64,000 bases of DNA from Endomicrobiales bacterium. GTDB lineage: Bacteria > Elusimicrobiota > Endomicrobiia > Endomicrobiales > JALOBY01. How positions within the stretch are numbered: position 1 is the first letter of the stretch; each line of letters begins with the position of its first letter. The DNA lies in NCBI GenBank assembly GCA_963796955.1, contig CAWCNJ010000006.1:102691-166690 (forward strand). Direction: 5' to 3'. Shown here in pieces: positions 5,077-48,000 of this stretch. Below the pieces are notes generated by a model, which was given only the letters and a program-made list of their open reading frames with translations, was not told the origin of the DNA and made no database searches. The position numbers were made by a program, and so were the translations under genes.

Positions 5077-5088
5077 GTTGCTTTTTTA

Positions 5089-5117: not shown

Positions 5118-5149
5118 AGCCTGAAAATACTGCAAAACGCATAAAAGAA

Positions 5150-5177
5150 TTGATATTTATAGTATTTAACATATAAT
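5150..5177 (+). promoter_or_regulatory. candidate promoter of giant gene A
   Basis: TTGATA (5150-5155), a 16-nt spacer, then TATAAT (5172-5177). The same hexamers and spacing occur upstream of gene B (42004-42031). Confidence 0.55.
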
Positions 5178-5189
5178 TTATAGTGACGA

Positions 5190-36200: not shown

Positions 36201-38653
36201 GCGTGGGGATACCGCAGAATTTAACGGTGAGCAGGGTGTACCAGAGTTCCATAGCGGTTACCTGGGATATGATAGCCAACGCGACCGGATATACGCTGGC
36301 AGCATCGACGTCGCCTAACAATCCTGTTACTGTCTACGCCTCCACAACCACACTGGGTGTTAATGCGATCAGCGCAATTGTTCTGAACCCCGCGTTACAG
36401 CCGGCAACGACGTATTACCTGTTCGTAAAGGCAAACGGCAATGGCGGGGAAAGCGGGTGGTCCACATCTGTATCGACAGTAACGCCGGATTATCTGCCGG
36501 GTGCTATAACAAACCTTTCGGCGCTGACAGGACAAGGCGCCGGCTCGATAGATCTGAGCTGGACAGCGCCGGGGACGGATGGTTACAACGGAAACATCGT
36601 CGGCGGCGTGTACAAGATACGCTATTCAACCTATACAACGGCAGCCGGGACATTCTGGACGGACGCTGCAGGGAACTGGACTGACCCGGTGAATAAATAT
36701 CAAATCACTATTAACACGAACACGGCGCCCGGCGAAGCGCAATCGTACCTGTTGTCGGGTCTCGGCCAGGGTGTGACCTACTACATTCGCGCCTGGACGC
36801 GTGATGAGGTTGGGATAGACAGTACGACCTGGAACGGCAATTGGTCGGCGGTGTCGAATGGCGCGACCTGCTGGGCTATGCGGGTAAAGACCCTGCCGCC
36901 GCCACCGGTAACTGACCTGACAGCCGTTAATGGTTTAAACGAGGGAAATGTGCTTCTTACCTGGACGGCGCCCTCGGCCTCTACATCCGCGCCGGTCACG
37001 GTGTCGTTGTATGAAGTCAGGGCCGCCACGTTCAGCGTCGGCGCCCTTACCGACGATACAACGGCCTGGTGGAACGCAGCGCCCTTCATCCATACGTTCC
37101 CGGAGCCCGGAACGCCCGCGAACCCCGATGCCATCACTCTTACCGGCCTGGCGGTAAGCACCTCGTGGTATTTCGCTATTGAGAGCGTGGGTCTAGCCGG
37201 GACCGTTTCGTTGATAGACGCAAATTCTTCGACGCACAACAGCCAGGCGTTCGTATTCACCACTGATGTGCAACCGGTACCTCCTACAGGGCTGACGGTG
37301 GTTGCCAGTACTTCGCCTATTGTTGTTCTAAAATGGGACGATATGAGAAGCTTCCAGGGATATCTGGACTTCGACCGTTATCAAATATGGCGTTCGTTAA
37401 CTTTTGCGCCGCAATCGTCGTTCGCTTCCATAGGCACCAGTACGAATACGGTCTTTATCGACGAAGCTGTCAGCGCCGGCGCCACGTATTATTATTTCAT
37501 AGTAGGGGTCGACAGCGCGCCGCAAGTGCTGGTCAGCAGCCCTTCGGCGGTTGTAACCGCGGTGGTAACGGTGCCGCGTAAGAAGACCGATATAACGCAG
37601 CCCCTGCCCCCTTCCGGCATACAGATAGCCGTTGTTGACGCGCATCCCGTTATTTCCTGGGATATGCCTCAATATAATACCGACGGCACGCAGTGTGTAG
37701 ACCAGGCCTCAAGCGTTATTTATCGCACGACTGGTCTGGACGATCCGTGGGATAACGTTGCCGCCATACCCTATGCCGGCGGTGTCGGCTGCCAGTGGAC
37801 GGATACCGCGATCGACCTGAGTAACTCGGCTGTCTATTATTACAAGGTGCAATGCGTCGATACCAGCGGGAACGCCAGCGCCGCTTCCATGTATTGCGAC
37901 ACCAGCCGCGACCTTAACCTGATCGTAGAATCGTCTGATAAACAGGTGAATCTTGTTATGCCTCAAAGTGAAGCAGGCCTGTTGTACAGGCGCGGTCCGA
38001 ACAAGGAAAATATCGATATCGTCGTGGATCAGGAAACAATGCCGGCGGATCCTGCCATTCTCCTGCAATTCGAATTTAAGGCCGTTACCGCCGGCACACG
38101 TCAAAAGATAAGCAGTTTTATGTTCGATAAGCCGCTTAACAAGGTCGTGTGGCAATTCTCGCAAAACCCTGTGTTCGGCTCAGGCAAACGCGTTAACTTA
38201 AGCGCTGCTCCCGTAAATATCGCGCAGGACATTTCCATGTTCTGGCACAGCGGCGTTGAATGGATAAAACTTAACAAATTAACGAATACGAATTCCATGC
38301 AAGTGTCGGTCAGACATCTGGGCAAATTCATGATCAAGCGTTCAATCGCCGCCACCAGTTTCTCAATGACAAAAGTTTTTCCGACGATATTTACCCCTAA
38401 CGGTGATCACCGCAACGATTATGTGGTATTCCAGTATGAAAACCCGAAAGATGACGCCGTTAGAGGAAAAATATATACTCCGGAAGGGGCTTTTGTAAGC
38501 AACCTGGTTAAATCCGATGATAACTCCTCGCTGATCTGGGACGGCACCAGAGACGGCGGCAAGGTAGCGGAGCCTGGTGCGTACGTCTATCAGATAGAGG
38601 TGATAGGCTCCGACGCGAAGGTGATCAACGGGGTAATAATATTGGCGAAATAA
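12200..38653 (+). CDS. giant FG-GAP/VCBS + FN3-like repeat surface protein, gene A, main fragment (8817 aa) with type-B T9SS-like C-terminal domain
   Basis: Uninterrupted 26.4-kb ORF. It holds eight 7-bladed FG-GAP propellers (DxDxDG motifs such as WGDYDNDGNLD), many FN3-like modules, a beta-helix insert, 13 tandem 98-aa modules and a C-terminal FTPNGDHRND...WDG...GAYVYQIEV domain. ATG 12200 is probably not a real start; it is a continuation of the ORF from 5190. Confidence 0.92.
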   Translation: MASRAEDSFGLTSSTSTALVSGGLAVLAYKTPFDSRYVEPTPGWGCGHYGSALAWGDLNDDGYQDLAVSGIIGTTPYTRIYKNNKDGTFSAYSTLPGGVDAGCPELQFSDFNNDGKMDLLVAGWPGSDPGIERIYLGNGDGTLNPAYVDAMPGFGRYWVSAKLGDYDNDGNLDIAIMGADDAGPGVSTFRIYRNNGNGAFSPNYIEPETGWGLCTQAPGWNYVGGRLLWGDYDNDGDLDLAVCGDDVNDNQLMRVYHNSGSGNHFGPAHELQVSDINDISWIDYDNNGYLDIAAFSQAAQKTRIYRNNGNGSFNTTPLEIFPGISMQNVAIAVGDYDNDGNSDLFLTGNTNTQGDIAGVYRNRGDGTFDQSIVSPLPLWGINGCGSIALSDYNNDGGLDMAVDGFGSGGDLSLRVFKNMEAQLGNANTAPVPPGTANINFNYSASKSTFTITWQPSQYDIGHSSNSVFFNVEASTSPTTLSTDKTRITAPDHFVEPWNFGSSNLGNFVRPAVSTSWAGVTGTSMHGFTLAPSTNTWLLNTTTFYFRIQTIDSGLMRSTWSAEFSCFASSTSNLAPNAPTNLAQLDGTHVSLSSFGWTNSGTIISSFTLTDPDDGQQVRFNLQITSVTTNGAADWTSIFASTRSALLNQGTTTYSWPTLNPNAFYWWRAWTEDSYGLTSATSAALGVNGSSGTAVLAYDTFFDPHTVRLDPSAGTGLWGGNIISGDFDNDGYQDIATCGANAVASAGHLDVLFYDHVSGTFGSPVIQGNMWGHIQTADFNNDGSLDIVAIVEDFNDYSNRVYTINNLGGRVFGTPTDISPGLSPSITNATVACGDYDNDGSPDIAVAGTIGGGAHMYALHNNGNGSFDPTPRDILYPGNGTSAIGGLAWGDYNNDGYLDLLATDNGYNYCVFKNNSNCTFNYVSLSAGADHYGAWADYDNDGNIDIVISGAVVRNKGDGSANPFDPSLVVIDPNCSLYAGDLAVGDLNNDGNIDMAIFGEYNYQASDCRMQAYLNKGNGSFDPQQHAFMPGLGLYDGGITLADFDGDGDLDMAACGMDSSGNLFCGLFTSKYTQMFSANTAPVPPAISSMTFVYSGYTTAKSTFTITWHPAQYDVGHSSNSVYFNVEASTFPTTLSTDRLRLATTGHYQEAWNFGTPNMGNFIRPSVSTSWAGVTGTQMVGYLFQPSTSAFTFNTTYYFRVQTIDSSLARSTWSVEQSYYCGDTTPPAALTNLAAITGFGPGTINLTWTSPGDDGISGNIVGGAYKIRYSTYTPSSWNDAASNWTDYLNKYQITIATNSTPGVTQSYLLTGLTGGVTYYVRAWTRDEVGVDSTSWNGNWSALSNGATCWAQINHAPNAPTNLAQLDSSLVNLSSFSWTNSGTIISSFTITDPDAGQQVKYHIQITTVSSSGLATWTSGYFLNYTSSLLNQGTTTYTWSALTAGNFYWWRVWTEDAGGLTSSTSTLLGVSGSGGPAVLAYKTMFDPVALQPDPGFSPNGQVDVSSVWGDFDNDGYQDIAVTGNNYTGEVLFYDHTSGTFPAKTQIGQLSGRIQAVDYNNDGSLDLVFAGYDNSVYEQRCRVIKNLGGKAFAAPADVVSGLTVGNFMIAAADYDNDGYADIALCGGGTGNALFVYTIHNNGDATFGNVVLLDTGGNSYYGYVPVAWGDINNDGYLDLLANMSSTRELCVYKNNCNGTLNHTPIVPVPAMSYNSQVAFADFNNDGNLDIVLTGQPGINFIKNTGSGNNPFDPSYTTVAGNATGGYFGIGDLNNDGYPDVMLEGENNYHSDDLNFMAYLNKSGNFDQDYVEVVPGGGVDRGSITFADFDADGDLDVLRQGMDANSVTSLSVFKSKYADMNGANIAPVPPSGLACQPVYATTGSTVTVTWPVAQYDAGISSCALSFQVVISSVPMTLDTSKKLVTAPGAFLNSWTSEGDGYGSFNRPAVKAWGLEPAVKFGYQMRISTTQIAVATTYYYRVQTIDSSLARSTWSAESIIYFVANSSPAAITNLSALTGNSAGEISLSWASPGADGAMNDIYGGAFKIRYSTYTTASAGFWLDAASNWTDQANKYQVTINTNTTPGAIQYYTLVGLLPGVTYYVRTWTRDEVGVDSTSWNGNWSTLSNGATAWAMTTTMPAGITDLVATNNSALSTVLLTWTAPGGNGQTAGLLSGSAFKIAYSTVNVISADNFNVLPSTMAIQTITISTVAAAMSPQSYNVGGLVNNTKYWFAIKTMNSVGNWSVWQSSADVAADNTLASTVCSYANVAPTISSLQTLNGSFIPINWTNAGTVISSFTISDANVGQLVRYNVQITSLTTNGAADWSGIFVSTRSALVNQGVETFTWPALNSNATFYWWRAWAEDINGAVSSTTTVSVSGDKALVANRSMFDPGYIALDAGTPAPDYGKTVTFGDFNGDGYQDIATAGYRDAGGYTDITRVFLNNGTGDGTFNASYITPPLQAGNTRNIMRWGDFNNDGNLDLVLGGFNKRLAICQNNGAGDFNNPPIYLDPDASFWCCNGAGAVGDVDNDGQLDIVVSGNTNTSVLMRIYRNNGDGTFTQSEPQAGWGTNTGALSLVDVDNNGSLDIAMGGIDTNSAPAFRIYRNNGNGTYTSYITPETIDTPFTSIYTAWADFDNDGLLDCALEGDGVVRQYHNNGNNTFTRSSITSDVYYNGAIDAADLNSDGFVDVIVTGRDAGFIRDLKTYLNNGNGTFAAGDSILPGWGVGGTNYYDNGSMEAADTNNDGFPDLAAYGEDTAHTVSLRVFTNKEAALGNTNTAPVPPGISNMTFTYSASRSTFTVTWQPSRYDVGHSSNSVYYNVEVSTYPTTLRSDKKRIVNSNKFVETWDFGSPNLGSFIRPSVSTSWAGVSGTSMVGYTIAPSTNNYLLNATTFYFRIQTIDSGLMRSTWSAEFSCLASTNIAPAGPAGITDLYAANNAGISGISLTWTASGDAGQSGNLTSGSAFKIEYSTVGIITTGNFDTPPANLAVTTINISTTTTAQSRQSWSLPGLLNNTTYWFAIKTENSEGQWSTWQSSADVAAYNLFSSTVCLYSNVAPDAPANLVQIDGTLGNVSSFTWTSSGNIVSSFTITDPNGGQQVRYHIQVSTVSDFVSGLATWTSGYFLNYTSSYLNQGTTTYAWPALTAGKFYWWRAWVEDAYGLASSTSSVLLSGGTAAFAYKTSFDPQGSNPIPWTANASANGQFTFGDYNNDGYPDLAIWGDDPTAKLHVYNNLGGGSFNATPVQPASGFGVDHTSNDACSWGDFNNDGYLDLAVSGWGSGSAYTCEVFKNNGSGGFAATPILPITGWGVAYSPSVAWGDINNDGNLDLAVMGGYNAVNFLRIFKNKGDGTFDTNYIEPTPGWSPKSGYINGSLTFADINNDGAMDLIVGVDAPGTEGRVYLNKGDGTFNPAYVSIDAAKTVCGDLDNDGWIDLAMSEYNNIRIYTNNHSGGFTTSTLPNSNYNDGILACGDFDGDGFLDLAAAGQVLNNNANSASLKIIRNNGAGSYAAAVDVFPGWGLFSSCIGAIDYENDGDLDIAVCGTDRNNSSNVFRILKNTQAQMSNANVAPTPPAGITALSSYDLNIASITLCWTPAQYDVSHSSNSIYYNVEMSTFPTTLSGDNLRLATNGRYTLPWDFGNQTLGSYVRPPVKQWPGSSQPTHGTAFNVSLAALGANPTYYYRVQTIDSGLMRSTWSAEYQVCIPAPSAPNAPTGLTQYIVGGSTLVTFGWAGKTGDVVASSFTITDPNGSTQVKYHIQITSVTPQNSPLWSQGLFVDYTSGWLTQGSTTYSWPAPPNGGRYWWRVYAINQSSVASSAATLLLDGSNPVISLKTDIDPIGADIVPGLGVTDGSLELGDFDNNGTLDLAVIGWNGTGQICRVYKNNGDGTFNQTPVSPITGFGAERGQAAWGDFNNDGYLDLAVCGNGSTRSCYVFRNKGNSTFDSTPIQPQTGFTARWAAIAWGDFNGDGYLDLAVTGRDDSNNYKFYTFNNFGNGSFNQTPVEPDPGWGVGNYQSGLACADYDNNGTLDLAITGLAQNGSGYARIYKGYGNGTFNPAFVNPDVNSDTFLGTNAFADYNNDGNLDLAIAAGTFRIDTNKGDGTFNATPVMPEGSGGYQRAATNGYMASLAWGDLNNDGKPDLVMNGATIGGTNTSRTYTNNGNGTFTAADISPGWGVNGAVAIGDIDNDGDEDIIAEGTQASNSAIYLRAFRNRNNDMGNVNVAPSAPSGMLSQVSYSVTSSTIIITWPPSQYDSGMSSCSLSYQVAVATMSMTLASNQTLIQSPTSFMTPWASEGDSYGTFNRPPVKVWGTDVTPKHGYQLNLSTNSIKANTTYYYRVQTIDSSLARSNWSTEFTYFTGTPPSGVTDLYATAGGIGTGAVMLTWTAPGDAGQIGNLATGSAFKIEYSSVGIINSSTFTSPPASLAVKSITISTNTTAMSPQSYNVTGLIGSTTYWFTLETENAEGVWSVWQSSADVAAYNDFAWAYTNYVNLAPNAPFNLAQIDGSLGNISSFTWTNSGNIVSSFTITDPNVGDQVRFDIQITSVTTNEAADWTRLFVSTRSALMNQGTTTYTWPTLNPNAFYWWRVWAEDSFGLTSATSAALGVIGSTGPAVVAYKTPFNAAYLEPTPGWGFGWWTALAWGDLNGDGYQDLAVIGTDVSYTRTLRVYLNNGDGTGSMNPSYIVPEAGVGLALGDLAWGDFNNDGNMDLAVTGFNGSDPGLLRVYVNNGSGGFSASHVDPIPGWGRYGSAVAWGDYDNDGNLDLAMMGSDGGPVSDGVFRIFRNKGDGTFDPNFIEPQTGWGMSSGRMCWADYNNDGDLDISLCGNNTSGATEVRVYRNNGNGTFNPTPAFVKSGIGDIAWGDYSNGGFLDMCVYDMAAGIQIYSNTGSGSLSGTPTNICSDGGGMWSIKLAAADYDNDGNIDVAASGQIGSLNMGNVRFLHNNGNSTFSGSRSTPLPGLGINGTLALSDNNNDGDVDIAAAGVSQAGDRCFLGIFQNMEAQMGNANTPPMPPSASINFNYSGFATQKSTFTITWQPSQYDVGHSSNSIYFNVEASTFPTTLGSGDKRIATTGRFAQSWNFGSPNLGSFIRPAISTSWAGATGTSIVGYTFAPSTSAFVYNTTYYFRIQTIDSGLMRSTWSAECKCQSAVPPAVVTDLYATAGGIGSGAVMLTWTAPGDAGQTGNLTAGSAFKIEYSTVGIINSSTFTSPPANLAVKTVTISTNTTAMSLQSYNITGLIGSTTYWFALETENAEGGWSIWQSSADVAAYNLYASTCTAFIPPAMIYRSVGPGSTTALVTGAGNGLVISGSTATFDSGLPNKVGVGDAIQYDANNDGTVDAILFISSRTSATSYTVQSADGKTAPTATSVKTNTWSVFRSYTSLHNVLQSLTVNSGISGLVSGSVNPGINLVSNNVQLNIACYGDAADTTKVAFSGMWVTSPSNKIRIFTPVSSGEAGVSQRHTGIWDTGKYYIESGNGHILLLEVNYIVVDGLQVHLNSTSSSDTRAIGMSTPAGACDITVENCIVRGSTSTSNTYDYFGGIVDGGGSGTGVIKIVNNIVYDFAAGGGGITHVGIAGVDGGVWYYVYNNTVYNCKDGLFFGGNDTLKNNISYGNSESNYNNAGVGNNNNLSGPTLADAPGTNPLNSAPVQFVDANRYDLRLSVSESSATDKGANLSSDANLPFSTDVLGNARPYGAAWDVGAFENYQNVLGVPQTLTVTNVYYSSVTVTWNLINGATGYTLIASTSSNIPVTVSASTTTTGVNATSATVYSPALSLATTYYFFVQSTGNALASAWSLPVSTVTLSGDITPPAAITNLAAVTGFGPGTINLSWTSPGDDGITGNITGGAYKIRYSTYTPTSWNDADTSWADYVNKYQITIATNSVPGVTQSYPLTGLTAGVTYYIRAWTRDEVGVDSTSWNGNWSALSNGATSWAQMDTAPNTPINLVQIDGTLGNISSFTWTNSGVITSSFTLSDPDSGQQIKYHIQITTVSSNGLATWTSGYFLNYTSPLLNQGTTTYTWPAMTAGNFYWWRVWAEDSYGLTSATTTALMSGGPAVFAYKTAYDAKYIEVNPGWGVGGNAHGSSIKWGDIENDGYQDLMVAGENQIGGEEFCIYDNAKNGSFNASPIHPKPGFGVSWSPSCAWGDVNNDGIQDVAVIGASADDVSGYTFRVFASNGNGTFGAAQEPTANWGEENAGIALGDFDNDGCLDVVVSGADDAKVSANFRIYRNNGDGTFGPNFIRPDIPLESSGDENGGGDTLACGDYNNDGLMDIAISWPTGLVRVYKNNGDLSFAHLTNDICSFFDSNIAWGDYNNDGYLDLFVAGHGFTGVFHNKGDGTFDSSVNIAGNNTFTGISGQAPLSLCVGDYDNDGNLDLAAAGLDYAAGTARKLYLFHNNGHGAFDSGPVETMPGWGVVDCSLAFADYNNDGGLDLAVSGADNNNIARCCVFNNMEAQMGNANTPPMPPSASINFNYSGFATQKSTFTITWQPSQYDVGHSSNSIYFNVEASTFPTTLGSGDKRIATTGRFAQPWNFGSPNLGSFIRPAISTSWASAPGTSMVGYTFAPSTSAFLMNTTCYFRIQTIDSGLARSTWSTESSVYVCGSPTVPVLVSPLDNYATNQMTVTFNWADSTDTISNSNYTLRLSSSPDFSGVTYSSNTVNMYASMALTTSKWYWSVRAGNPVGAYSAWSSTWSVVVDTLAPSVPILTSPLDNFTTNQMVLTFGWSSATDNLTGVNDYTLRLSTAPDFTGVTYSSITANIVAQMSLTTGHWFWAVRSLDNVGNYSAWASTYTLIVDTTPPTVPILTGPLDGSTTNQTVLTFNWGISTDDITGLANYTLTLSTAADFSGVIYSSITTNTSAAMTIQSSDKWYWTVRSVDNAVNYSAWASTWSVVVDTHAPTVPILITPLDNFTTNQMTPAFAWQGSTDTLSGIANYTLRLSTAPDFSGTIYSSTTANTLASRALVSCRWYWSVRAANNSGNYSAWSSTWSVVIDTVSSSIPVLTAPLDNYTTNQMTLTFNWNISMDNLSGVNGYTLQLSTAPDFTGVTYSSITANNSAVMALTTNKWYWTVRSQDNAANYSAWASTWSVVVDTIAPTMPILTTPLDNFTTNQMTLAFNWGSATDNLSGVSGYTLRLSTAADFSGVIMLSVTDNTAATMNLTSNKWYWTVRSGDNAGNYSTWASTYSLVVDTVASTVPLLLSPLDNFATNQMTLSFSWSSATDNLTGVNDYTVQLSTAADFTGVTYSSITANTAAQMALTSDRWYWTVRSLDNAANYSAWASTWSLVIDTTPPTVPILTNPLDGSTTNQTVLTFNWGASTDDITGLAGYTLRLSTAPDFSGVIYSSVTGNTAARMTIQSSDKWYWSVRSVDNAENYSAWTSTWSVVVDTRAPTVPLLLSPLDNFTTNQMTLAFNWQGSTDTVSGITNYTLRLSTAPDFSGTTYSSTTAITAAIMNLTTNKWYWSVRALNNSGNYSNWSSTWAVIMDTVVPSVPILTSPLNNFTTNQMTLAFNWNSATDNLTGVNDYTLRLSTAPDFTGVTYSSITANTAAQMAMTSGRWYWTVRSLDNAANYSAWASTYTLVVDTTPPTVPALTGPLDGSTTNQTMVTFGWNSSTDDLTGVACYTLRFSTAPDFSGAIYSSATTNTIAAMTIPACAKWYWTVRSSDNAGNYSAWASTWTVLVDTRAPTVPLLLSPLDNYTTNQMALTFSWQGSTDTLSGVADYTLRISTALDFSGTVYSSTTGNTLAGMTQVSNKWYWSVRAANNSGNYSAWSSTWSVVIDSTPSSVPVLTAPLDNYTTNQITLAFSWNSATDNISGVSGYTLRLSTASDLSGVVYSSVTANNAAVMMLSTNRWYWTVRSVDNAANYSAWASTWSVIIDTVVPNALNDLAAAPGFALGSIALHWTSPGDDGPSGAIIGGYYKVRYSTYTTASGAFWTDAAANWVDPVNKYQITIATNTNVGDTQSYTLSGLTQGVTYYIRAWTRDEVGVDSTTWTGNWSALSNGATCWAACVGIPQNLTVSRVYQSSIAVTWDMIANATGYTLAASTSPNNPVTVYASTTTLGVNAISAIVLNPALQPATTYYLFVKANGNGGESGWSTSVSTVTPDYLPGAITNLSALTGQGAGSIDLSWTAPGTDGYNGNIVGGVYKIRYSTYTTAAGTFWTDAAGNWTDPVNKYQITINTNTAPGEAQSYLLSGLGQGVTYYIRAWTRDEVGIDSTTWNGNWSAVSNGATCWAMRVKTLPPPPVTDLTAVNGLNEGNVLLTWTAPSASTSAPVTVSLYEVRAATFSVGALTDDTTAWWNAAPFIHTFPEPGTPANPDAITLTGLAVSTSWYFAIESVGLAGTVSLIDANSSTHNSQAFVFTTDVQPVPPTGLTVVASTSPIVVLKWDDMRSFQGYLDFDRYQIWRSLTFAPQSSFASIGTSTNTVFIDEAVSAGATYYYFIVGVDSAPQVLVSSPSAVVTAVVTVPRKKTDITQPLPPSGIQIAVVDAHPVISWDMPQYNTDGTQCVDQASSVIYRTTGLDDPWDNVAAIPYAGGVGCQWTDTAIDLSNSAVYYYKVQCVDTSGNASAASMYCDTSRDLNLIVESSDKQVNLVMPQSEAGLLYRRGPNKENIDIVVDQETMPADPAILLQFEFKAVTAGTRQKISSFMFDKPLNKVVWQFSQNPVFGSGKRVNLSAAPVNIAQDISMFWHSGVEWIKLNKLTNTNSMQVSVRHLGKFMIKRSIAATSFSMTKVFPTIFTPNGDHRNDYVVFQYENPKDDAVRGKIYTPEGAFVSNLVKSDDNSSLIWDGTRDGGKVAEPGAYVYQIEVIGSDAKVINGVIILAK
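12209..12210 (+). other. frameshift site 1 (one T missing) joining ORF 5190..12233 to ORF 12200..38653
   Basis: The observed sequence is gca ggg cgg agg. Inserting T gives gca tgg gcg gag gat agc = AWAEDSFGLTS, matching the module consensus FYWWRAWAEDS(F/Y)GLTS seen near 14180-14230 and 25915-25965. Confidence 0.85.
12270..13455 (+). repeat. 7-bladed FG-GAP/VCBS beta-propeller A4
   Basis: Seven blades counted, from LAWGDLNDDGYQDLAV to IALSDYNNDGGLDMAV. Ends at FKNMEAQLGNANT. Confidence 0.85.
13456..13912 (+). repeat. 'QYD' FN3-like module (exemplar; one follows every propeller)
   Basis: EAQLGNANTAPVPP..FNYSASKSTFTITWQPSQYDIGHSSNSVFFNVEASTSPTTL..WNFGSSNLGNFVRPAVSTSWAGVTGT..TTFYFRIQTIDSGLMRSTWSAE. 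It has FN3-like W/Y/YFR.Q..D landmarks with a ~45-aa insertion. Confidence 0.6.
14277..15410 (+). repeat. FG-GAP/VCBS beta-propeller A5
   Basis: Runs from IISGDFDNDGYQDIAT to ITLADFDGDGDLDMAA. Ends at FTSKYTQMFSANT. Confidence 0.8.
15862..16248 (+). repeat. FN3 module type D (exemplar)
   Basis: PPAALTNLAAITGFGPGTINLTWTSPGDDG..GGAYKIRYSTYT..NKYQITIATNSTPGVTQSYLLTGLTGGVTYYVRAWTRDEVGVDSTSWNGNWSALS. Similar copies occur near 11110, 18190, 29590, 35815, 36490, 46090, 49580, 54600, 59700 and 62490. Confidence 0.75.
16250..16617 (+). repeat. 'WWR' beta-sandwich module (exemplar; one precedes every propeller)
   Basis: NHAPNAPTNLAQLDSSLVNLSSFSWTNSGTIISSFTITDPDAGQQVKYHIQITTVSS..LNQGTTTYTWSALTAGNFYWWRVWTEDAGGLTSSTS. 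Approximate starts of the other copies in gene A: 5340, 7270, 9200, 11910, 13915, 18970, 21340, 23280, 25650, 29980. In gene B: 42200, 44090, 46870, 50360, 52680, 55390, 57780, 60490, 62880. Confidence 0.6.
16618..17750 (+). repeat. FG-GAP/VCBS beta-propeller A6
   Basis: Runs from SVWGDFDNDGYQDIAV to ITFADFDADGDLDVLR. Ends at FKSKYADMNGANI. Confidence 0.8.
18581..18972 (+). repeat. FN3-like module type E (exemplar)
   Basis: PAGITDLVATNNSALSTVLLTWTAPGGNGQTAGLLSGSAFKIAYSTVNVIS..SPQSYNVGGLVNNTKYWFAIKTMNSVGNWSVWQSSADVAA. Similar copies occur near 11500, 20930, 25250, 27620, 46480, 49970, 52300, 55000, 57390 and 60100. Confidence 0.7.
19321..20485 (+). repeat. FG-GAP/VCBS beta-propeller A7
   Basis: Runs from VTFGDFNGDGYQDIAT to MEAADTNNDGFPDLAA. 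Ends at FTNKEAALGNTNT. Confidence 0.8.
21700..22850 (+). repeat. FG-GAP/VCBS beta-propeller A8
   Basis: Runs from FTFGDYNNDGYPDLAI to IGAIDYENDGDLDIAV. Ends at LKNTQAQMSNANV. Confidence 0.8.
23651..24815 (+). repeat. FG-GAP/VCBS beta-propeller A9
   Basis: Runs from LELGDFDNNGTLDLAV to VAIGDIDNDGDEDIIA. Ends at FRNRNNDMGNVNV. Confidence 0.8.
26005..27170 (+). repeat. FG-GAP/VCBS beta-propeller A10
   Basis: Runs from LAWGDLNGDGYQDLAV to LALSDNNNDGDVDIAA. Ends at FQNMEAQMGNANT. Confidence 0.8.
27167..27472 (+). repeat. 306-bp intragenic near-identical repeat, copy 1 (partner 31526..31831)
   Basis: 304 of 306 nt are identical by line comparison; the mismatches are at 27198 (a/g) and 27407 (t/c). 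It covers the propeller/QYD junction MEAQMGNANTPPMPPSASINFNYSGFATQKSTFTITWQPSQYDVGHSSNSIYFNVEAS... Confidence 0.9.
28008..29292 (+). other. right-handed parallel beta-helix (pectate-lyase-fold) insert domain in gene A
   Basis: The only copy in the window. PbH1-like turns: ITVENCIVRGS, IKIVNNIVYDF, YVYNNTVYNC, DTLKNNISYGN. The hallmark C-terminal cap is FVDANRYDLRLSVSESSATDKGANL..DVLGNARPYGAAWDVGAFEN. The N-terminal part is IYRSVGPGSTTALVTGAGNGLVISGSTATFDSGLP..VGDAIQYD. Confidence 0.7.
30338..31528 (+). repeat. FG-GAP/VCBS beta-propeller A11
   Basis: Runs from IKWGDIENDGYQDLMV to LAFADYNNDGGLDLAV. Ends at FNNMEAQMGNANT. Confidence 0.8.
31526..31831 (+). repeat. 306-bp intragenic near-identical repeat, copy 2 (partner 27167..27472)
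   Basis: See copy 1. The offset between copies is 4,359 nt. Confidence 0.9.
31984..35811 (+). repeat. tandem array of 13 copies of a ~98-aa (294-nt) Ig/FN3-like module
   Basis: The unit consensus is PTVPILTxPLDNFTTNQMTLxFNWxSATDNLxGVxxYTLRLSTAPDFxGVxYSSxTANTxAxMxLTxxKWYWTVRSxDNAxNYSAWASTWSxVVDT. Thirteen units were counted in the translation with no spacers. Sub-types recur in the order A-B-C(-D). Confidence 0.9.
38359..38650 (+). other. C-terminal sorting domain resembling the T9SS type-B / gliding-motility CHU_C domain
   Basis: FSMTKVFPTIFTPNGDHRNDYVVFQYENP..RGKIYTPEGAFVSNLV..LIWDGTRDGGKVAEPGAYVYQIEVIGSDAKVINGVIILAK*. It matches the remembered pattern FTPNGDG.ND ... I..R.G..V ... WDG...G ... 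G.Y.Y ... G.I.L at the extreme C-terminus. Confidence 0.6.
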
Positions 38654-38656
38654 ATT

Positions 38657-40354
38657 ATGAAAAACACTATACAGCGCACCATTATCACGGGATTTCTACT
38701 TTGCGGGGCGGCTGCCGCCCACGCTGAATTCAACGAACTGGGCAGCAGCGCACGCTCTGCCGGCATGGGGGACTGCTATGTGGCTATCGCCGACGACGCG
38801 TATGCCACGTTCTATAACCCTGCGGGCCTTGGGCGGCTGCACCACAAAGAGATCGCGACCACCTCAAGCCGGCTGCTGATGGGTTTGAGCGACCTTAATA
38901 CGATCGATGAGAACATCATAAGCGCGGTGTACGGGACGCAGCTGTACGGCGGCATCGGCCTGGGCATCCATACGTTCGACGTTTCCGGGTTGTACAAGGA
39001 AAGCACCTCAATGCTCTCGTATGGAAAGCTCGTCGGTAAAGAAGTGTACCTCGGCGCCTCTATGAAATTCATGTCGAAAGACTACGTGCCTAATCTCTAC
39101 ACTGAAAACGCCATAGACTTTTCAGGCGAATCGTTCGGGCGCGACCCCGTGTTCGCCAACGGGTATTCCAAAGCTTTCATGTCCTACGATCTGGGCAGCT
39201 ATTACCAGTACAGCAAAAGGTTGGCCCTGGCCCTGGTGGCGAAGGATATAACCAGCCCCGATACCGGCCTTGCCGCCGCAAACCCGCTGCCCATGACGAC
39301 AACCCTGGGCCTGTGCTACCAGGACGAAGGCCTGTTAATACCGCTTGAAATACAGACCAGAAGCGACGCGATAACATACGCGGCCGGCTTTGAAAGATGG
39401 CTATTCTCCGACCAGCTGGCGCTGCGCGCGGGCCTGCAGGAAGGCAGCGGCAATCTGTCGGTGGTGTCGTGCGGCGTGTCATACAGCTATAACAATATCA
39501 TCCGTTTTGATTACGGTTTTTCCATGCCCTTGTCGGGTATAACGAACACCAGCGGCTCGCACCGGCTGAGCCTGGTGGTATCGATCGGCAAACCGAAAAC
39601 GAACACTTTTGAGCTTGCGAAACAGCCGCGCGATTATATAGACGCGGTCACCGCCTTCGACAAAGGCCAGTACTTTACCGCCTACGATATGTTCGAGACA
39701 CTGATAAAATCCCTGGAGACCAGCCGGCAGTTAAAGGACCACGCCATCGCGTATGTCAAAGAGATCCTTTCCCGGATGCAGGCGAACATCAAGGCGAACG
39801 CGGCGCCCTCGGAAGTAGCCTACGCCAAGGGCCTTATGGCGTACAGCGTGCCGGATTACGAGGATGCTTTGAACGAACTGCAGGTGTTCGCGGGCATTAT
39901 CCCCGGCAACACGGAAGTGAACTATTATATCGAGCTGCTGAAAAAGATGCTGGGTAAAGGATCGGCAAAGCCGCAGGAAAACCAGTCCGGTGAGAACGGC
40001 GGGGGCAAGGGCGGCAAAGGGTCTGACCAGAAAGACGAATTCCCCGGGCTCGACGATAAAGCGCCGGACCCGATGCTGTCGAACATGTCGCGGGACGAAT
40101 ATATCAATTACAAACTGCGCAACGCGGTAACGGATTTCAACCAGGGGTATTACGACCTGTCGGCGAAAGACTGTTTATACGCCCTGCGCGCGGACCCGAA
40201 CAAGGACCTGAGCTACGTGCGGCTTGGCTCGGCGTATTACGCGATGGGTATGCGCCAGTACGCGGTTAAAGCCTGGCAGAAGGCCCTGCAGCTGAACCCG
40301 GGCAACGCGGACCTCAGGGAATTTATGCAGGAAAAAAATATACCGGTGAAATAA
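38657..40354 (+). CDS. outer-membrane beta-barrel protein (PorV/PorQ/FadL-like N-terminal motif) fused to a C-terminal TPR domain
   Basis: 565 aa. The ATG lies 3 nt after the gene A stop. The signal peptide is MKNTIQRTIITGFLLCGAAAAHA|EF. The opening motif is GSSARSAGMGDCYVAIADDAYATFYNPAGLG. An alternating beta-strand pattern runs to ~aa 310 (HRLSLVVSIG). A G/K-rich linker follows (ENGGGKGGKGSDQKDE). TPR-like helices end the protein (YVRLGSAYYAMGMRQYAVKAWQKALQLNPGNADL). Confidence 0.7.
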   Translation: MKNTIQRTIITGFLLCGAAAAHAEFNELGSSARSAGMGDCYVAIADDAYATFYNPAGLGRLHHKEIATTSSRLLMGLSDLNTIDENIISAVYGTQLYGGIGLGIHTFDVSGLYKESTSMLSYGKLVGKEVYLGASMKFMSKDYVPNLYTENAIDFSGESFGRDPVFANGYSKAFMSYDLGSYYQYSKRLALALVAKDITSPDTGLAAANPLPMTTTLGLCYQDEGLLIPLEIQTRSDAITYAAGFERWLFSDQLALRAGLQEGSGNLSVVSCGVSYSYNNIIRFDYGFSMPLSGITNTSGSHRLSLVVSIGKPKTNTFELAKQPRDYIDAVTAFDKGQYFTAYDMFETLIKSLETSRQLKDHAIAYVKEILSRMQANIKANAAPSEVAYAKGLMAYSVPDYEDALNELQVFAGIIPGNTEVNYYIELLKKMLGKGSAKPQENQSGENGGGKGGKGSDQKDEFPGLDDKAPDPMLSNMSRDEYINYKLRNAVTDFNQGYYDLSAKDCLYALRADPNKDLSYVRLGSAYYAMGMRQYAVKAWQKALQLNPGNADLREFMQEKNIPVK

Positions 40355-40474: not shown

Positions 40475-40503
40475 TTGACTATGTTAACATTAGTGTGTAT
40501 AAT
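40475..40503 (+). promoter_or_regulatory. near-consensus promoter of ATPase gene 2, geometry implies a leaderless mRNA
   Basis: TTGACT (40475-40480), a 17-nt spacer, then TATAAT (40498-40503). The A of ATG 40510 is the 7th nt after the -10 hexamer, the same geometry as at 3798-3833. Confidence 0.55.
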
Positions 40504-40509
40504 TGTGGT

Positions 40510-41832
40510 ATGGAAAGACACATAGATAGGCTTCTGTCTGAATGGAAAAATGACGATCATAGAAAAGTTTTGCTTTTGCGCGGCGCCAGGCAAGTTGGTA
40601 AAACGTATTCTGTAAGGGCGTTAGGGAAAACTTTTCCGCATTACCTTGAAGTAAACTTTGAGGAAGAAAAACCGGTTAAGGAATTTTTTAAGGGTTCCCT
40701 GAACCCGGAGATGCTTTGTCAGAAACTTTCTGCGTATTTTAAGAAACCTGTAATCCAGGGTAAAACACTCCTCTTTTTCGATGAGATCCAATCCTGCCCG
40801 GAAGCCTTAAGTTCGCTGAGATACTTTTATGAAAAGATGCCTCGTCTTCACTTGATAGCAACCGGCTCATTGCTGGAATTTGCTCTTTCGCAAATACCGG
40901 CACAGGGAGTGGGAAGGATCACTTCATTATATCTCTATCCGATGTCATTTGATGAGTTTTTGATCGCTTTGGATGAACGTAAGCTTACTGAAATAAAAAC
41001 CGGATCCAGTTATAAGTCTCCCCTTGATACCGCGTTCCATGAGAAACTGATCGATTATCTAAAGATTTTTTTTATTATCGGTGGAATGCCTGAGGTAGTA
41101 AAAGAATACGTCGAACGAAAAGATCTGTTAGCATGCCAAAAAAAAATAAATGATTTGATCGAAACGTTTAAAGACGATTTTGCAAAATATAAGAACCGGT
41201 CGCCTTCGCAGAGAATAAATGAGGTTTTCAGCTCGATAGTATATCAGTCCGGAAATAAATTTAAGTATTCAAACGTCGATTCCCATTCTTCGCATATCGC
41301 CATTAAAGATGCTTTAGACATGATCGTTATGGCGGGGCTGGCAATTAAAGTATTCCATACTTCCGCGCAGGGCTTGCCTTTGGGCGCGGGTATCGACAGC
41401 AGAAAGTTCAAAGTTATTCTTTTTGATTTTGGACTTTATCAAAAATTGCTCGGGTTAGACATCTCGTCGATAATTGCGGATAATAATTTTACGGCGCTCA
41501 ATAAAGGAAGCCTTGCGGAATTATTTGTCGGGCTTGAAATTATTAAAAATAATCCATCATCTTTACGAAGTGATTTGTATTATTGGCACAGGGAAAAAAG
41601 AGCAAGCAACGCAGAAGTTGATTATGTTATACAGAAAGGGAATGATATTTTACCGGTTGAGGTAAAATCCGGCTATTCGGGACAAATGCAGAGCCTGAGA
41701 TTATTCATGCAGGAGCACAACTCTAAAATGGGCATAAGAGTGTCGTTGGAAAATTTCGCAAAATTTGAGAAAATAGAAGTATATCCCATGTATGCGGTGA
41801 AAAACATTTTGCAAGGGAATAGGGGGGAGTAA
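40510..41832 (+). CDS. AAA ATPase of the COG1373 / AAA_14 + DUF4143 type with a C-terminal PD-(D/E)xK-like motif (second, divergent copy)
   Basis: 440 aa from ATG 40510 (MERHIDRLL...). The ORF-track start at 40495 is a GTG inside the -10 region. Walker A is GARQVGKTY and Walker B is LFFDEIQ. The C-terminus carries AEVDYVIQKGNDILPVEVKSG. The gene is AT-rich: the sample line 40501-40560 has 22/60 G+C by hand count. Confidence 0.8.
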   Translation: MERHIDRLLSEWKNDDHRKVLLLRGARQVGKTYSVRALGKTFPHYLEVNFEEEKPVKEFFKGSLNPEMLCQKLSAYFKKPVIQGKTLLFFDEIQSCPEALSSLRYFYEKMPRLHLIATGSLLEFALSQIPAQGVGRITSLYLYPMSFDEFLIALDERKLTEIKTGSSYKSPLDTAFHEKLIDYLKIFFIIGGMPEVVKEYVERKDLLACQKKINDLIETFKDDFAKYKNRSPSQRINEVFSSIVYQSGNKFKYSNVDSHSSHIAIKDALDMIVMAGLAIKVFHTSAQGLPLGAGIDSRKFKVILFDFGLYQKLLGLDISSIIADNNFTALNKGSLAELFVGLEIIKNNPSSLRSDLYYWHREKRASNAEVDYVIQKGNDILPVEVKSGYSGQMQSLRLFMQEHNSKMGIRVSLENFAKFEKIEVYPMYAVKNILQGNRGE

Positions 41833-42067: not shown

Positions 42068-45000
42068 ATGTATCACTATTTTCGCATGGAGAACGTCATG
42101 GTCGTTCGATTGTGTTTGCGAACAGTTAACTCTAAAAGCGCTACACTCGCGATAATTTTCGCGGTTGCTGCGCTATTATTTTTGCCCTCCGTTTCAATGG
42201 CTACCAGCGCGCCGACCAATGTAATGCAGCGTGTCAGCGGTTCTGTTACTCTTTCATCGTTCTCATGGACCAGCTCGTCTCTCATAGTCTCTTCGTTCAC
42301 TCTTCCCGGCAGCAGCTCATACTGCATTCAGGCAACCTCCGCCACCGTTAACGACCAACCGGACTGGACAAAGTTATTGTGGGGCACCAAGCGTTCCAGC
42401 GTACTGAACGCCGGCACGACCTGGTATAACTGGCCCGCCCTTACTTCTCCCGGCATTTACTGGTGGCGCATCTGGGCGGAAAGCGCCGGTGTGGCTTCCT
42501 CGACGATCACCGTGCTCTCCGCAGGCGGCCCGGCGGCATTCGCCTACAAGACTGATGTGGACCCGCGGGGCATCGATGTTTCGTCGGGTCTCGGTGTTGA
42601 TTTTGGGGAAGGCAATGGGGTTTTTGGCGGCCTGGCGCTTGGCGATTATGATAATAACGGCACGCTGGATCTTGCCGTGGCCGGTTACACAGGGTCTCAG
42701 ACCATATGCCGCGTTTATAAAGGCAATGGCGATGGAACATTTAACCAGGCGTTCGTTGAGCCGATCACCGGCTGGGGCTCCGATAACGGATCCATCAATT
42801 GGGGCGACTACAATAACGATGGTTCCCTTGACCTGCTGGTGAACGGTAATGGTTCTGATGGCCCGGTACATTTGTACGTTTTTAAAAACAACGGCGACGG
42901 TACGTTCAATTCAACGCCGATAGAGCCGAAACCTGGCTGGGGACTTCACTATGGAAATGCACAATGGGGAGATTATAACAACGACGGTTATCTGGACATA
43001 GTAACAGAGGGCCAGGATTATCCGGCATACCAAAATCGTTTCTATTTGTTCACGAATCTGGGCAATGGAAGCTTCAACCCTGTACCCATAGATCCCGATC
43101 CCAGTGACGCCTCAGGATATTCCACTGCAGGTTTTTTCGATTACAATAATGATGGTTACCTTGATATCTGCATGACCGGGACAGGAAGTTGGGACAACCG
43201 CATTTACAAGAACAACGGTGACGGTACCTTTACCAATTCAGGCAACGATGTGCCCTGGCCGTACGGCGGCGGGTATACCTACGGCGATTACGATAACGAC
43301 GGCAATGTGGATGTGTGCCTGCCCGACGGCATATGGCAGAACAACGGTAATGGCACGTTTTCCGGGGGCGTTCAGTTTGGTGGAAATGAGGGTACACCGG
43401 CTTTAGCAGACATGAATAATGATGGTAAATTGGATGTAGTCGTTGTCGGAAGTTATCAAGGCAACTTCTTAAAGCTGATCGCTAATAATGGCGGCAGCAA
43501 TTTTACGGCGACAGACCTGAGCCCCGCGACCACCGGGCAGAATTTTTCCTACATAGTTTTGGGAGATCTTGACGGTGACGGGGATGCCGACATAGTTGTA
43601 GCCGGCCAGAAGAATGATGGTTCGAACGCCAGGTTCCTGAGCGTATACAAGAATAAGAATTACGAAATGGGCAACACTAATACCGCGCCGCAGCCGCCCG
43701 CCGGTCTTACCGCCCTGTTTAGCTACAACGTTAACAGCGCCAGTATAACGCTGTGCTGGACGCCCGCCCAGTATGATGTGGGCCATTCCTCGTACTCGAT
43801 CTATTACAACGTGGAAATGGCGACCGCGCCCACAACGCTTACCGGCAGCAATATGAGGGTGTCCGGGGCTAACGGCTACAAAATACCCTGGGATTACCCT
43901 TCTGATCAAGGTAATTATATCCGCCCTGCGGTAAAACAGCGGGCAGGCCTTTCCCAAATTACACAGGGATCAAGTTATCAGGTTCCGTATGGCAATTTGC
44001 AGGCGAACGCCACCTATTACTTCCGCGTACAAACTATTGATGCCGGCTTGATGCGCAGTACCTGGTCTGCGGAAAGATCTATTTGTGCTGCGGCGCCGCT
44101 CCCGCCGAACACACCATCCGGGCTTATGCAATGCCTTGTGGGGGGTGCAACGGTATCGTCATACGGCTGGGTCGGCAAGGCGGGTGACGTTATATTTTCA
44201 TCGTTCACGCTTACGGACCCCAACGGCAGTAGCCCGGTTAAATACCGCATTCAAATAACCTCGGTTACCGCCGCCGGCATTGCCCCGGTCTGGAACCAGG
44301 GCATTGCGGTAGACTACACGTCCGGCTGGCTGCCGCAGGGGGCGACCACCTATTACTGGCCTGGCTTGCCGGTCGGATTGTACTGGTGGCAAGTGTATTG
44401 CATAAACGGAAGCAGCGTTGCATCGTCCGTAGCAACCACTCTTGCCGACGGCAACAACCCGGTGCTATCCTACAAGACGAATTTCGACCCTACCGGAATT
44501 GATCTGGTGCCCGGCCTGGGTGTTAACAGCGGTTTTGTCTCTCTCGGTGATTTCGATAACAACGGCACGCTTGATATGGCGGTTATTGGTTATACCGGCT
44601 CAAGCTACATTAGCAAGGTTTATAAAAACAACGGAGACGGGAGTTTTAACCAGATCGCAGTAGCGCCGAGCAACAGCGTGGGCGTTAATGGTTCCGCCGC
44701 CTGGGGTGATTATAATAACGACGGCGACCTGGACCTTGCGGTAAGTGGTTACGATGGCGGCTCTCCACGCCTGCGCATTTACAAAAATAGCGGTCTCGGA
44801 ACATTTAATTCTTCGCTGGACCTGATATCTGGCGGCGGTTTGGGTAGCAGCGGTGACCAAGGGGTTATTGCCTGGGGCGATTTCAACAATGACGGTTATC
44901 TTGACCTTGCAGGCGCAGGAACGGATGGTAGTGCGGAGCGTTTTTATGTGTTCATGAATAATGGCAATGGAAGTTTTAACACAACCCCTGTGCAGCCTGA

Positions 45001-48000
45001 TCCCGGCTGGGGTGTAGACAACTGGTGGGGCGGGATATGTACCGTTGATTGCAACAACGACGGTAACCTGGATATAGCCGTCGCAGGTACCAGTGACGGC
45101 TTCGCGGGCTATGCCAGAATATACAAAGGCAACGGCAACGGGAAATTTAATTCAGCTTTTACCACACCGGACGCGGGTTACAATGGGGGCGACCAGGGGT
45201 ATGCCTCAATGACGTTTGGGGATTATAACCTTGACGGCAACCTGGACGCAGCGGTAGGCGGTGTTGCGGGTTTCAGGGTGGATAAGGGCAATGGCGATGC
45301 GACCTTTACCGATACAACCCTTCAGCCTGACGGCGCCGGCTGGTTTGGCAGCGCCGACGGCGGTGCGGTAATCGCCTGGGCCGATATCAACAACGATGGT
45401 AAGCCCGATATGGTAATTGGCGGGCTTCAGAATGGCAACGGCGGTAAGTTCAGGCTGGAACTGAACAATGGCAATGGCACGTTCACGTCCAGCGATATCC
45501 AGCCCGGCTGGAACAGTTTCTGCAATGTTGCTCTTGGCGACCTGGACAACGACGGCGATGCGGACGCTGTCGTGTCGAATCAAAATGGTAATGACAGCGG
45601 CCACTACTATTTGAAAGCCTTCTTTAACAAAACCCATGAAATGGGTATCGCTACCAATGCGCCCGTCCCGCCGGGAAGTCTTACCTACCAGTCTTCATAC
45701 GCGATAACCGGTTCCACGGTAATGATAACCTGGCCGGCAGCGCAGTACGACGCAACCGCATCGTCGCGCACGCTTTCTTTCCAGGTGGAAATATCAACGG
45801 CTCAAACGACGCTTGCATCGAACAAAAAATTGATATCAGCGCCCTCGTCAGCCGGTGCATTCATAAATACCTGGGCGTCTGAAGGCGATGATTATGGAAC
45901 GTTTTACCGTCCTGCGGCAAAGGTCTGGGGTACGGATCCCTCGCCGAAATTCGGCATTCAGTTGAATTTAAGCACTGCCACCATCCAGGGCGGAACATCG
46001 TACTATTACCGCATACAAACCATTGATGGCAGTCTTTTGCGCAGTACCTGGTCGGTGGAAGGCACACTGTATATGCCCATGGGCACGGCGCCGGCTGCTA
46101 TCACCAACCTTACCGCATTGAAAGGCAACTCCGGTGGCGAGCTGAAACTAAACTGGACCTCCCCCGGCGCGGACGGAACCGCGAACAACATATACGGTGG
46201 TGTCTTTAAAATACGCTATTCCACCTACACCATCGCATCGGCCGGTTTCTGGACGGATGCGGCATCTAACTGGACGGACCCGTTAAACAAATATCAGATA
46301 ACGATACCTACCAACTCCACGCCGAGCACAACACAGTCAACGACGCTTGTAGGGCTTACCCCAGGCGGGACCTATTACGTCCGTGCCTGGGTGAGGGATG
46401 AGGTAGGCGTAGACAGTACCAGCTGGAACGGTAACTGGTCGGCGTTGTCTAATGCCGCGACCGCGTATGCGATGACGGCGACAACCCCGCAGGTGATAAG
46501 CGACCTGGTAGCCACGAACAATGCGGCTCTGGGCGCCGTTAATCTTGCCTGGACGGCACCCGGCGGTAACGGGCAGACCGGCGACCTGAACGCAGGTTCC
46601 GCCTTCAAAATTAAATATTCGACGGTGAACGTTATCACGACCGATAATTTTACGACCATGCAGTCTACTATGGCTATCCAGAGTATAACTATTTCAACGG
46701 TTGCTACTGCCATGAGCAGGCAGAGCTACAACGTAGGGGGGCTTACCAACGGCAAAAAATACTGGTTCGCGATCGAAACAGAAAATTCCCAGGCCGCCTG
46801 GTCGACATGGTACTCTTCAGCCACAGGGGACGGTCATACCACCTACAGCATACTGGCAAGCACGATCTGTTCGTACACTAACCATGCGCCGACAATATCC
46901 AGCCTGGAACAGCTGAACGGTTCAATGGTTTCAATGACTTCGTTTACCTGGATAAATTCCGGCGCTATCATTTCATCGTTCACTATCATCGATACCGACC
47001 TGGGCCAGCAGGTGCGGTTCAATATCCAGATAACGTCAATAACAACTAACGATGCTGCCGATTGGACCAGTATATTCGCCAGCACGCGCTCAGCTTTGAC
47101 CAGCCAGGGCACGTTGAACTATACCTGGCCGGCGTTGAACCCGAATGTGTACTACTGGTGGCGCGCCTGGGCGGAAGATCAATTTGGCTTAACATCAGCT
47201 ACCTCCACCGCGCTGGTAAGCGACGGTGCAGCGGTAATTGCCTATAAAACACCGTATGATCCGCATTTTATAGAACCTACCCCCGGCTGGGGAGTAGGAT
47301 ATTGGGGCGGCGGTACTGCCTGGGGCGACTTTAACGGTGACGGTAATCAGGACATCGCAGTTACCGGCTGCGGCTTTTGGGGCGGGAACGATTACCTCAG
47401 GGTTTATTTGAACAATGGTGACGGCACATTCAGTTCCTCGTATATAGAGCCGCAGATCGGCGTGGGTTTCCGCAGCGGCGCAGTGGCCTGGGGGGATTTT
47501 GATAACGATGGTGATCTGGATCTGGCGGCAACCGGCTCTGTCGACGGTGATGTTACCGGTATACTGAGAGTATACCGGAACAACGGCAATGGAGCTTCAT
47601 TTAGTACAACCTATACGGATGCGCCCGGTTGGGGCGGGTTCTACAGCTCAGTTGCCTGGGGCGATTATGATAACGACGGCAACCTTGATGTAGCTGTAAC
47701 GGGGACGTTGGATGGGACGGCAGCTAACGGAAGATTCAGGATATACCATAACACCGGCAACGGGACTTTTGACACGAATTACCTGCAACCCACGGCCAAT
47801 TGGGGCGTGACTTACAGTAACACAACTCCACGTATTGGCTGGGCGGATTATGAAAATGACGGAGACCTGGACATTGCTGTCTGCGGCACTGATATCAGCA
47901 GCACGAATGTTTTGCGTGTATACAAAAACAACGGCGACGGAACGTTCGCCTCCTCCCCTGCTCTCCTGGTCAATGATGTTATTGATTTTACCTGGAGCGA

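Follow-up and report, generated by a model that had tools for sequence, protein, structure and literature searches.

We analysed a 64,000-nucleotide stretch of the genome of an Endomicrobiales bacterium (phylum Elusimicrobiota; GenBank assembly GCA_963796955.1, contig CAWCNJ010000006.1, positions 102,691 to 166,690 of the forward strand), referred to below as the window. It contains a giant gene, gene A, whose product ends in a type-B-like C-terminal sorting domain (CTD), and directly downstream a second gene, gene B, which encodes a predicted β-barrel of the FadL fold that runs on into a helical tail with tetratricopeptide repeats (TPR). We favour reading gene B as the counterpart in Elusimicrobiota of PorP/SprF of Bacteroidota. 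More specifically, we put at about 65% the probability that the giant adhesin of gene A has in the product of gene B its cognate carrier and anchor, of the PorP/SprF-like kind, with a periplasmic tail in place of the C-terminal tail of SprF, or of the protein PorE, as coupler. The pairing of a type B CTD with a PorP-like barrel is known; its occurrence in Elusimicrobiota and the fused tail are undescribed.

In the known systems, porP/sprF-like genes are often found directly downstream of genes with a type B CTD, for whose products they encode the cognate shuttles, and secretion of type B cargo requires both T9SS (type IX secretion system), with its SprA/Sov translocon and GldKLMN, and five motifs, A–E (PMC12618676). 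PG1035, a type B protein, and the periplasmic lipoprotein PorE are binding partners of PorP, and SprF binds SprB (PMC9143113). The window resembles these pairs (SprF–SprB and Fjoh_3951–Fjoh_3952 of F. johnsoniae, PorP–PG1035 of P. gingivalis) in having a 14-strand FadL-family barrel encoded directly downstream of the cargo gene, a very large, repetitive surface protein with a CHU_C/TIGR04131-type CTD as cargo, one barrel per cargo, and a barrel C terminus that would be periplasmic and available for coupling. Moreover, relatives of gene B match the PorP/SprF models TIGR03519 and PF11751. The window differs in coming from Elusimicrobiota, in that its own barrel misses the PorP/SprF models, in that no T9SS core gene is seen within it, and in carrying a 250-aa helical/TPR tail in place of the short Cys-X-Cys tail of SprF.

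The sorting domain occupies the last 109 aa of the cargo (38324–38650, + strand), as delimited by Pfam CHU_C and a custom CTD profile. It closes the main open reading frame (ORF) of gene A (12200–38653, +; 8,817 aa, built of FG-GAP_3 and fn3-like repeats), the 3′ end of which reads ...FTPNGDHRNDYVVFQYENPKDDAVRGKIYTPEGAFVSNLVKSDDNSSLIWDGTRDGGKVAEPGAYVYQIEVIGSDAKVINGVIILAK*, and it contains the motifs IFTPNGDxxND, GKIYxxxGAxV, WDG, PGAYVYQIEV and INGVxxLAK. Its last ~90 aa score 30.0 bits with CHU_C (PF13585; gathering score 27, E 5.7e-7), the custom profile finds the domain at E 6e-49, and the profile match extends to the final residue of gene A. In the NCBIfam scan, the type A CTD model (TIGR04183) found no match on the cargo. 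With CHU_C above its Pfam threshold, the type-B-like CTD proposed in an earlier note on this DNA is supported; the outcome that would have spoken against it, assignment to a non-sorting Ig domain, did not occur.

Genes A and B share a common reading frame and nearly touch. The TAA stop of gene A (38651–38653) is followed by ATT and then by the ATG of gene B at 38657, stop and 3-base spacer together spanning 38651–38656 (+), which places the barrel gene directly downstream of the CTD gene as in the type B pairs. Rereading of the sequence confirmed this junction as the earlier note had given it, along with its other sequence claims (the CTD motifs, the ILAK* ending and the opening of gene B). 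The translational coupling it had proposed fared less well: the 3-base spacer is present in the window, but such tight spacing is not kept in relatives, where the two genes are anything from overlapping by 4 bases to ~250 bases apart (the largest spacer, at locus L005) and only the adjacency is conserved. Stop-codon read-through to an A–B fusion protein was also considered and rejected, since gene B opens with a putative signal peptide of its own and both spacers and frames vary in relatives.

The pairing of CTD gene and barrel gene recurs across a set of related loci. We applied the custom CTD profile, which was trained on eight related sequences, to the 10 loci with DNA, a count that leaves aside the locus in ENA ERZ1426827; at each of them the gene next upstream of the barrel has a CTD at its extreme C terminus. 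Loci outside the training set were recovered as well (L005, 2e-49; L010, 2e-46; L009, 6e-24; L011, 4e-6). The CTDs of seven other loci align readily with that of the window; motifs common to the related loci are IFTPNGDxxND, GKIYDxxGAxV, WDG, PGxYxYQIEVTG and a terminal xVxLAK/R. This synteny is kept among relatives at 25–74% identity, and the cargo proteins range from 133 to >8,800 aa. With the domain recovered by the profile ahead of the barrel at all ten loci, the arrangement is, on the sequence evidence, not a matter of chance. The same position, directly downstream of a type-B-like CTD gene at every one of these loci, makes PorP/SprF rather than PorV/PorQ the analogue of gene B.

Gene B itself (38657–40354; 565 aa) encodes a signal peptide, a hatch, a barrel and two helical modules. 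The protein opens MKNTIQRTIITGFLLCGAAAAHA/EF, the part before the stroke being the putative signal peptide (aa 1–23; 38657–38725, +); the A-H-A cleavage site is expected from inspection by eye and from the alignment of relatives, in which the hydrophobic N terminus stops right before a conserved (D/E)F(E/D)xxG. The hatch (aa 24–60), with a near-invariant YNPAG, and a 14-strand barrel (aa 64–310) together take up 38726–39592 (+), as delineated by AlphaFold2, NF033709 and Foldseek; residues 32–59 read ARSAGMGDCYVAIADDAYATFYNPAGLG. An AlphaFold2 model built from 28 sequences has a mean pLDDT of 82, and one built from 8 sequences (mean pLDDT 68.5) shows the same hatch and 14 strands. AlphaFold2 and Foldseek thus predict for gene B the 14-strand FadL-family barrel that is characteristic of PorP/SprF.

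Among curated models the best score comes from the PorV/PorQ family NF033709 (61.8 bits against a cutoff of 90, E 7.8e-17), with aa 23–309 aligned to positions 4–325 of the 326 in the model. The equivalog models for PorV (NF033710; 28.5 against 250 bits) and PorQ (NF033711; 14.3 against 220 bits) match in the hatch region only, Pfam PorP_SprF (PF11751) gives 17.3 against 22.3 bits, and Pfam Toluene_X (FadL; PF03349) gives 12.5 against 29.7 bits at E 0.05, which is noise level. Searched against the PDB with Foldseek, the model matches FadL, CymD, TodX and PorV comparably (E 2e-11 to 5e-11); within this FadL-type group it is PorV (8gl6_F, E 4e-11) that has the top target-normalised TM-score (0.60) and the lowest r.m.s.d. 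(4.4 Å). A 25-sequence profile of the barrel alone, run against all PDB sequences, finds PorV as the sole significant match (E 3.4e-7), the next being CymD at E 0.25. Because profile scores and structure matches favour PorV over FadL, we place the predicted barrel within the PorV/PorQ/PorP branch of the FadL fold. We file gene B as a PorP/SprF-like carrier by its putative working mode and assign it to the PorV/PorQ/PorP superfamily; since no curated threshold is reached, despite significant E-values and a fitting fold and context, it is not a certified PorP, PorV or PorQ.

These scores bear directly on whether gene B could be a plain FadL/TodX transporter of hydrophobic small molecules lying next to an Ig-like domain without a sorting role. 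The FadL, TodX and CymD channels do share with gene B a 14-strand barrel and an N-terminal hatch with an NPA motif, a hallmark of the FadL family, and by E-value all three are among the top Foldseek matches; they lack, however, both linkage to a cargo gene and a periplasmic tail. Toluene_X reaches an E-value of 0.05 against the 7.8e-17 of the PorV family, the search of the PDB by profile yields PorV but not FadL, the CTD passes CHU_C, and its synteny with the barrel persists down to 25% identity. On profile scores and synteny we reject a plain transporter, which is very improbable. Profile searches on both parts, which the earlier note had suggested, thus returned CHU_C for the CTD and the PorV/PorQ/PorP group for the barrel, and the plain FadL assignment that would have contradicted that note did not emerge.

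The earlier note had compared the barrel with PorV and PorQ. Membership in the same branch of the FadL fold stands, but the genetic context makes PorP/SprF the analogue. A true PorV/PorQ orthologue would be a general shuttle, or part of an attachment complex, serving many type A cargos and only incidentally a neighbour of gene A. It is true that PorV of F. johnsoniae (6H3I/8GL6 chain F; NF033709) provides both the best-scoring curated model and the sole significant solved-structure match, and that both it and gene B have 14 strands and an NPA(G)-bearing hatch at the N terminus. PorV, however, is a general type A CTD shuttle that is not encoded beside cargo genes and has no periplasmic domain. 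Gene B falls far below both equivalog cutoffs, with matches confined to the N-terminal hatch; its cargo has no type A match, type B cargo is independent of PorV, and its one-to-one linkage, at 10 of 10 loci, to a gene with a type-B-like CTD is the PorP/SprF pattern. Orthology with PorV or PorQ was rejected on equivalog scores and cargo linkage and appears improbable.

Beyond the barrel, the helical/TPR tail that the earlier note had described is borne out. Helical module 1 (aa 325–431; 39629–39952, +) consists of six TPR-like helices in the AlphaFold2 model (pLDDT 85–94). It has no significant Pfam profile match and is kept in all close relatives, also in those without module 2; in their alignment A342, Y343, F346, I370, Y389, A390, G392, Y396, E420 and Y424 are invariant. 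A G/K-rich low-complexity linker (aa 433–470; 39953–40066, +) follows, evident in the sequence and predicted to be disordered (pLDDT <50 at aa 435–457). The note had recorded this linker but placed it between barrel and helices, and its position is corrected here: it separates module 1 from module 2. Helical module 2 (aa 472–559; 40070–40336, +) is a TPR domain, with Pfam TPR_2 at 27.1 bits against 27 over aa 519–550 (TPR_1, at 26.9 against 27.8, is slightly under), NCBIfam matches to PilW- and MamA-type TPR models over aa 475–553, and five helices plus a short N-terminal turn in the AlphaFold2 model. Profile match and helical hairpins together identify a TPR repeat domain in gene B. Because the C terminus of an even-stranded barrel is periplasmic, the whole tail would lie in the periplasm.

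Such tails are widespread. When 1.84 billion cluster representatives were searched exhaustively with a profile, 628 matched the barrel family at E<1e-30, a number that rose to 3,145 at E<1e-10; family statistics were drawn from 90 sampled top matches. NF033709 is matched by 89 of these 90 relatives, TIGR03519 (PorP/SprF) by 58 at E<=1e-3 and PF11751 by 33. At least 100 aa extend beyond the barrel in 73/90 (median tail, 194), with Pfam TPR_2 in 37, Pfam LysM (PF01476), which binds peptidoglycan, in 19 and the NCBIfam LysM-protein model in 22. Fusion of barrel and tail is thus the norm in this large family, most of which is metagenomic. The earlier note had taken the fusion to be undescribed; this holds in that our literature search found no paper describing a PorP–TPR fusion, but the fusion is not rare, tails being family-wide. 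Annotation of the family is inconsistent, members being called ‘tetratricopeptide repeat protein’, ‘hypothetical’ or ‘PorP/SprF’; relative P0047 is named ‘type IX secretion system membrane protein PorP/SprF [Elusimicrobiota bacterium]’ at NCBI. One relative, P0073 (1,175 aa), runs on into what by eye resembles a histidine-kinase-type C-terminal region.

In some loci the tail seems to have a gene of its own. At L004, from an Endomicrobiales metagenome-assembled genome (MAG), a separate gene with ten TPR repeats (7359–8519) and the barrel gene overlap at the 3′ end of the latter, and at L006 an sCache/TPR gene (4268–5368) overlaps its barrel gene in the same way; both look like split versions of the fused tail in the window. 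The split gene at L004, found alongside the fused forms, suggests that barrel and TPR work together. The nearest functional analogy is PorE (PG1058), an outer-membrane lipoprotein with TPR, β-propeller, CRD and OmpA_C-like domains that binds both PorP and peptidoglycan; in F. johnsoniae, six porP-like genes adjoin porE-like genes (PMC9143113). As with PorE, a periplasmic TPR module (or LysM, in relatives of gene B) is tied to a PorP-like barrel, and at L004 the TPR protein is likewise the product of a separate adjacent gene. The module of gene B differs in being fused to the barrel, in lacking propeller, CRD and OmpA_C, and in having no detectable homology to PorE; the resemblance is one of functional analogy only. 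SprF offers a second precedent: the Cys-X-Cys motif in its periplasmic C-terminal tail forms a disulfide with GldK that links carrier and moving track, and the tail is dispensable for carrier function itself (PMC12635249). By analogy, the published roles of the SprF tail (PMC12635249) and of PorE (PMC9143113) favour periplasmic coupling or anchoring for the tail of gene B at least as strongly as cargo docking.

If gene B acts as a PorP/SprF-like carrier, the locus would work as follows. The cargo would be exported by Sec through a signal peptide encoded at 5190, and the 14-strand FadL/PorV-fold barrel would recognize its type-B-like CTD. The barrel would collect the cargo at the outer membrane and retain it on the surface by non-covalent CTD–barrel binding, while the two helical/TPR modules would hang into the periplasm from the C terminus of the barrel. 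There the tail may be an integral scaffold, linking the carrier with partners in the periplasm or with the wall, a task that in Bacteroidota falls to the Cys-X-Cys C-terminal tail of SprF, with its disulfide to GldK, and to the separate PorE bound to PorP.

That the window belongs to Elusimicrobiota is supported by its typA gene (1973–3766), whose best named relatives, at 74–82% identity, are all from Elusimicrobia/Elusimicrobiota; in a narrow-pattern scan of genome contigs, the single match to the barrel was the Endomicrobiales MAG locus L004, and a scan of metagenome contigs with such patterns likewise gave one locus, L005. The phylum is also the first of several points that weigh against a PorP/SprF-like carrier, T9SS being said to be confined to Bacteroidota (PMC12618676, PMC7463736, PMC10515386). 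No gene for SprA/Sov, PorK/L/M/N, PorE or PorU lies within the 64-kb window. The gene B barrel scores under every curated cutoff (NF033709, PorV, PorQ and PorP_SprF) and has no match to TIGR03519 at E<=1, and the CTD falls short of the NCBIfam TIGR04131 cutoff (26.2 against 35 bits). The tail lacks a Cys-X-Cys motif, the NCBIfam scan detects in it no homology with PorE or PorW, and its coupling role would be assigned by analogy only.

Several of these points would sit comfortably with a module that works without T9SS. Elusimicrobiota would then lack SprA and PorKLMN, the barrel–TPR protein would be the secretion partner together with BAM or another pore, and the TPR part, as a periplasmic receptor or chaperone, would capture the CTD, in line with the cargo docking that the earlier note had proposed. 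T9SS is reported as exclusive to Bacteroidota, yet the window comes from Elusimicrobiota. The tail is large and family-wide, and TPR domains are common periplasmic substrate-docking modules. T9SS core genes were found in none of the 11 neighbourhoods examined, of which ~10 kb per side were visible, which does not imply absence from the genomes, and our literature search found no paper linking Elusimicrobia/Elusimicrobiota with T9SS. To judge from the FadL/PorV fold, however, a plugged 14-strand barrel would be too narrow for a multidomain protein of ~11,000 aa, and the LysM domains that many relatives carry, instead of or beside TPR, fit wall anchoring better than docking. We regard a T9SS-independent secretion module as unlikely, less so than the two alternatives weighed above. 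Equally tentative is a broader proposal, in which Elusimicrobiota might sort and anchor many giant surface proteins by an ancestral or minimal CTD–carrier system without SprA/PorKLMN, the TPR/LysM tail providing both docking and wall coupling in the manner of PorE, PorK and the SprF tail.

On the PorP/SprF-like reading, the locus offers a concrete, testable route by which a huge Elusimicrobiota protein could be targeted to the cell surface and held there. Elusimicrobiota rank with the bacteria that have the greatest wealth of huge proteins, which are essentially uncharacterised (PMC11573180; bioRxiv 10.1101/2023.11.21.568195). The pair of type B CTD and PorP-like carrier would be extended beyond Bacteroidota, which bears on the origin of T9SS carriers. 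The fused TPR/LysM tails and the split version in Endomicrobiales amount to ‘Rosetta-stone’ evidence of PorP-like carriers acting together with a scaffold in the periplasm, and in this they support the PorP–PorE and SprF–GldK models, which were derived from two Bacteroidota species. Should the T9SS core prove absent from genomes that bear the barrel, the interest of the system would be substantially greater.

The cargo gene itself extends upstream of its main ORF. Joining ORF 5190–12233 to ORF 12200–38653 gives a single gene of FG-GAP_3 and fn3-like repeats (5190–38653, +) that encodes ~11,150 aa and probably starts at 5190, where the N terminus resembles a signal peptide (…MAAIIFAVIALLFFSIVSNA/AP). 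The two ORFs are separated by a frame break near 12207–12212, an apparent 1-base deletion within the repeat motif FYWWRAWAEDSFGLTS that leaves the codons GCA GGG CGG in place of GCA TGG GCG. This break could reflect either a real pseudogene or an assembly error.

Gene content around the pair varies among the related loci (protein lengths in aa). L001 has a 733-aa CHU_C protein, a barrel–TPR protein of 739 and a giant gene. Two CHU_C proteins precede the barrel both at L004 (627 and 196, then a barrel of 476 and the overlapping ten-TPR protein of 386) and at L006 (650 and 143, then a barrel–TPR protein of 526 and the overlapping sCache/TPR protein). At L007, from Elusimicrobiota, a LamG protein of 2,648 overlaps a barrel–TPR protein of 549 by 4 bases; at L009 the overlap between a protein of >3,414 and a barrel–TPR protein of 593 is 1 base. 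L008 pairs a CHU_C protein of 133 with a barrel of 509, L010 an fn3/CHU_C protein of 1,201 with a barrel–TPR protein of 529, and L011 a protein of 2,237 with a barrel–TPR protein of 530 and a FliG-like protein. The locus in ENA ERZ1426827 encodes a giant protein (>6,349), a 122-aa protein, a barrel–TPR protein of 551 and again a FliG-like protein.

Two features of these loci stand apart from the pairing. Small proteins of 122–196 aa are encoded between the large cargo and the barrel at L004 (5295–5885), L006 (2251–2682), L008 (4407–4808) and the ENA locus; three of the four (133–196 aa) comprise little beyond a CTD, and the 122-aa ENA protein has no Pfam match. These small proteins call to mind the ‘cap’ for PorP that has been proposed for PG1035 of P. 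gingivalis; in the window no such protein lies between gene A and gene B. Secondly, a FliG-like gene (FliG_N/M/C) lies directly 3′ of the barrel–TPR gene in two distant relatives, L011 (8504–9943) and ENA ERZ1426827. The encoded proteins, of 479 and 497 aa, are longer than typical FliG, and the adjacency could be due to chance or could point to a motor-related partner.

The remainder of the window is largely taken up by a second giant paralogue of the same FG-GAP/fn3 repeat architecture (42068–51529, 51352–61947 and onward past 64000), which has its own signal-peptide-like N terminus and in which the frame shifts at about 51.4 kb and again at about 61.94 kb. It runs off the end of the window, its C terminus and a possible partner barrel lying outside view. 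Each giant gene is preceded by a gene for an AAA_14/DUF4143 ATPase (3833–4972 and 40495–41832). The two ATPases were considered as part of a duplicated module, which was rejected, their identity being only 28% and over partial alignments. The second ATPase gene lies in a GC trough (41.5% against ~52% around it), which suggests that it was inserted later, separating the barrel gene from the giant gene that follows.

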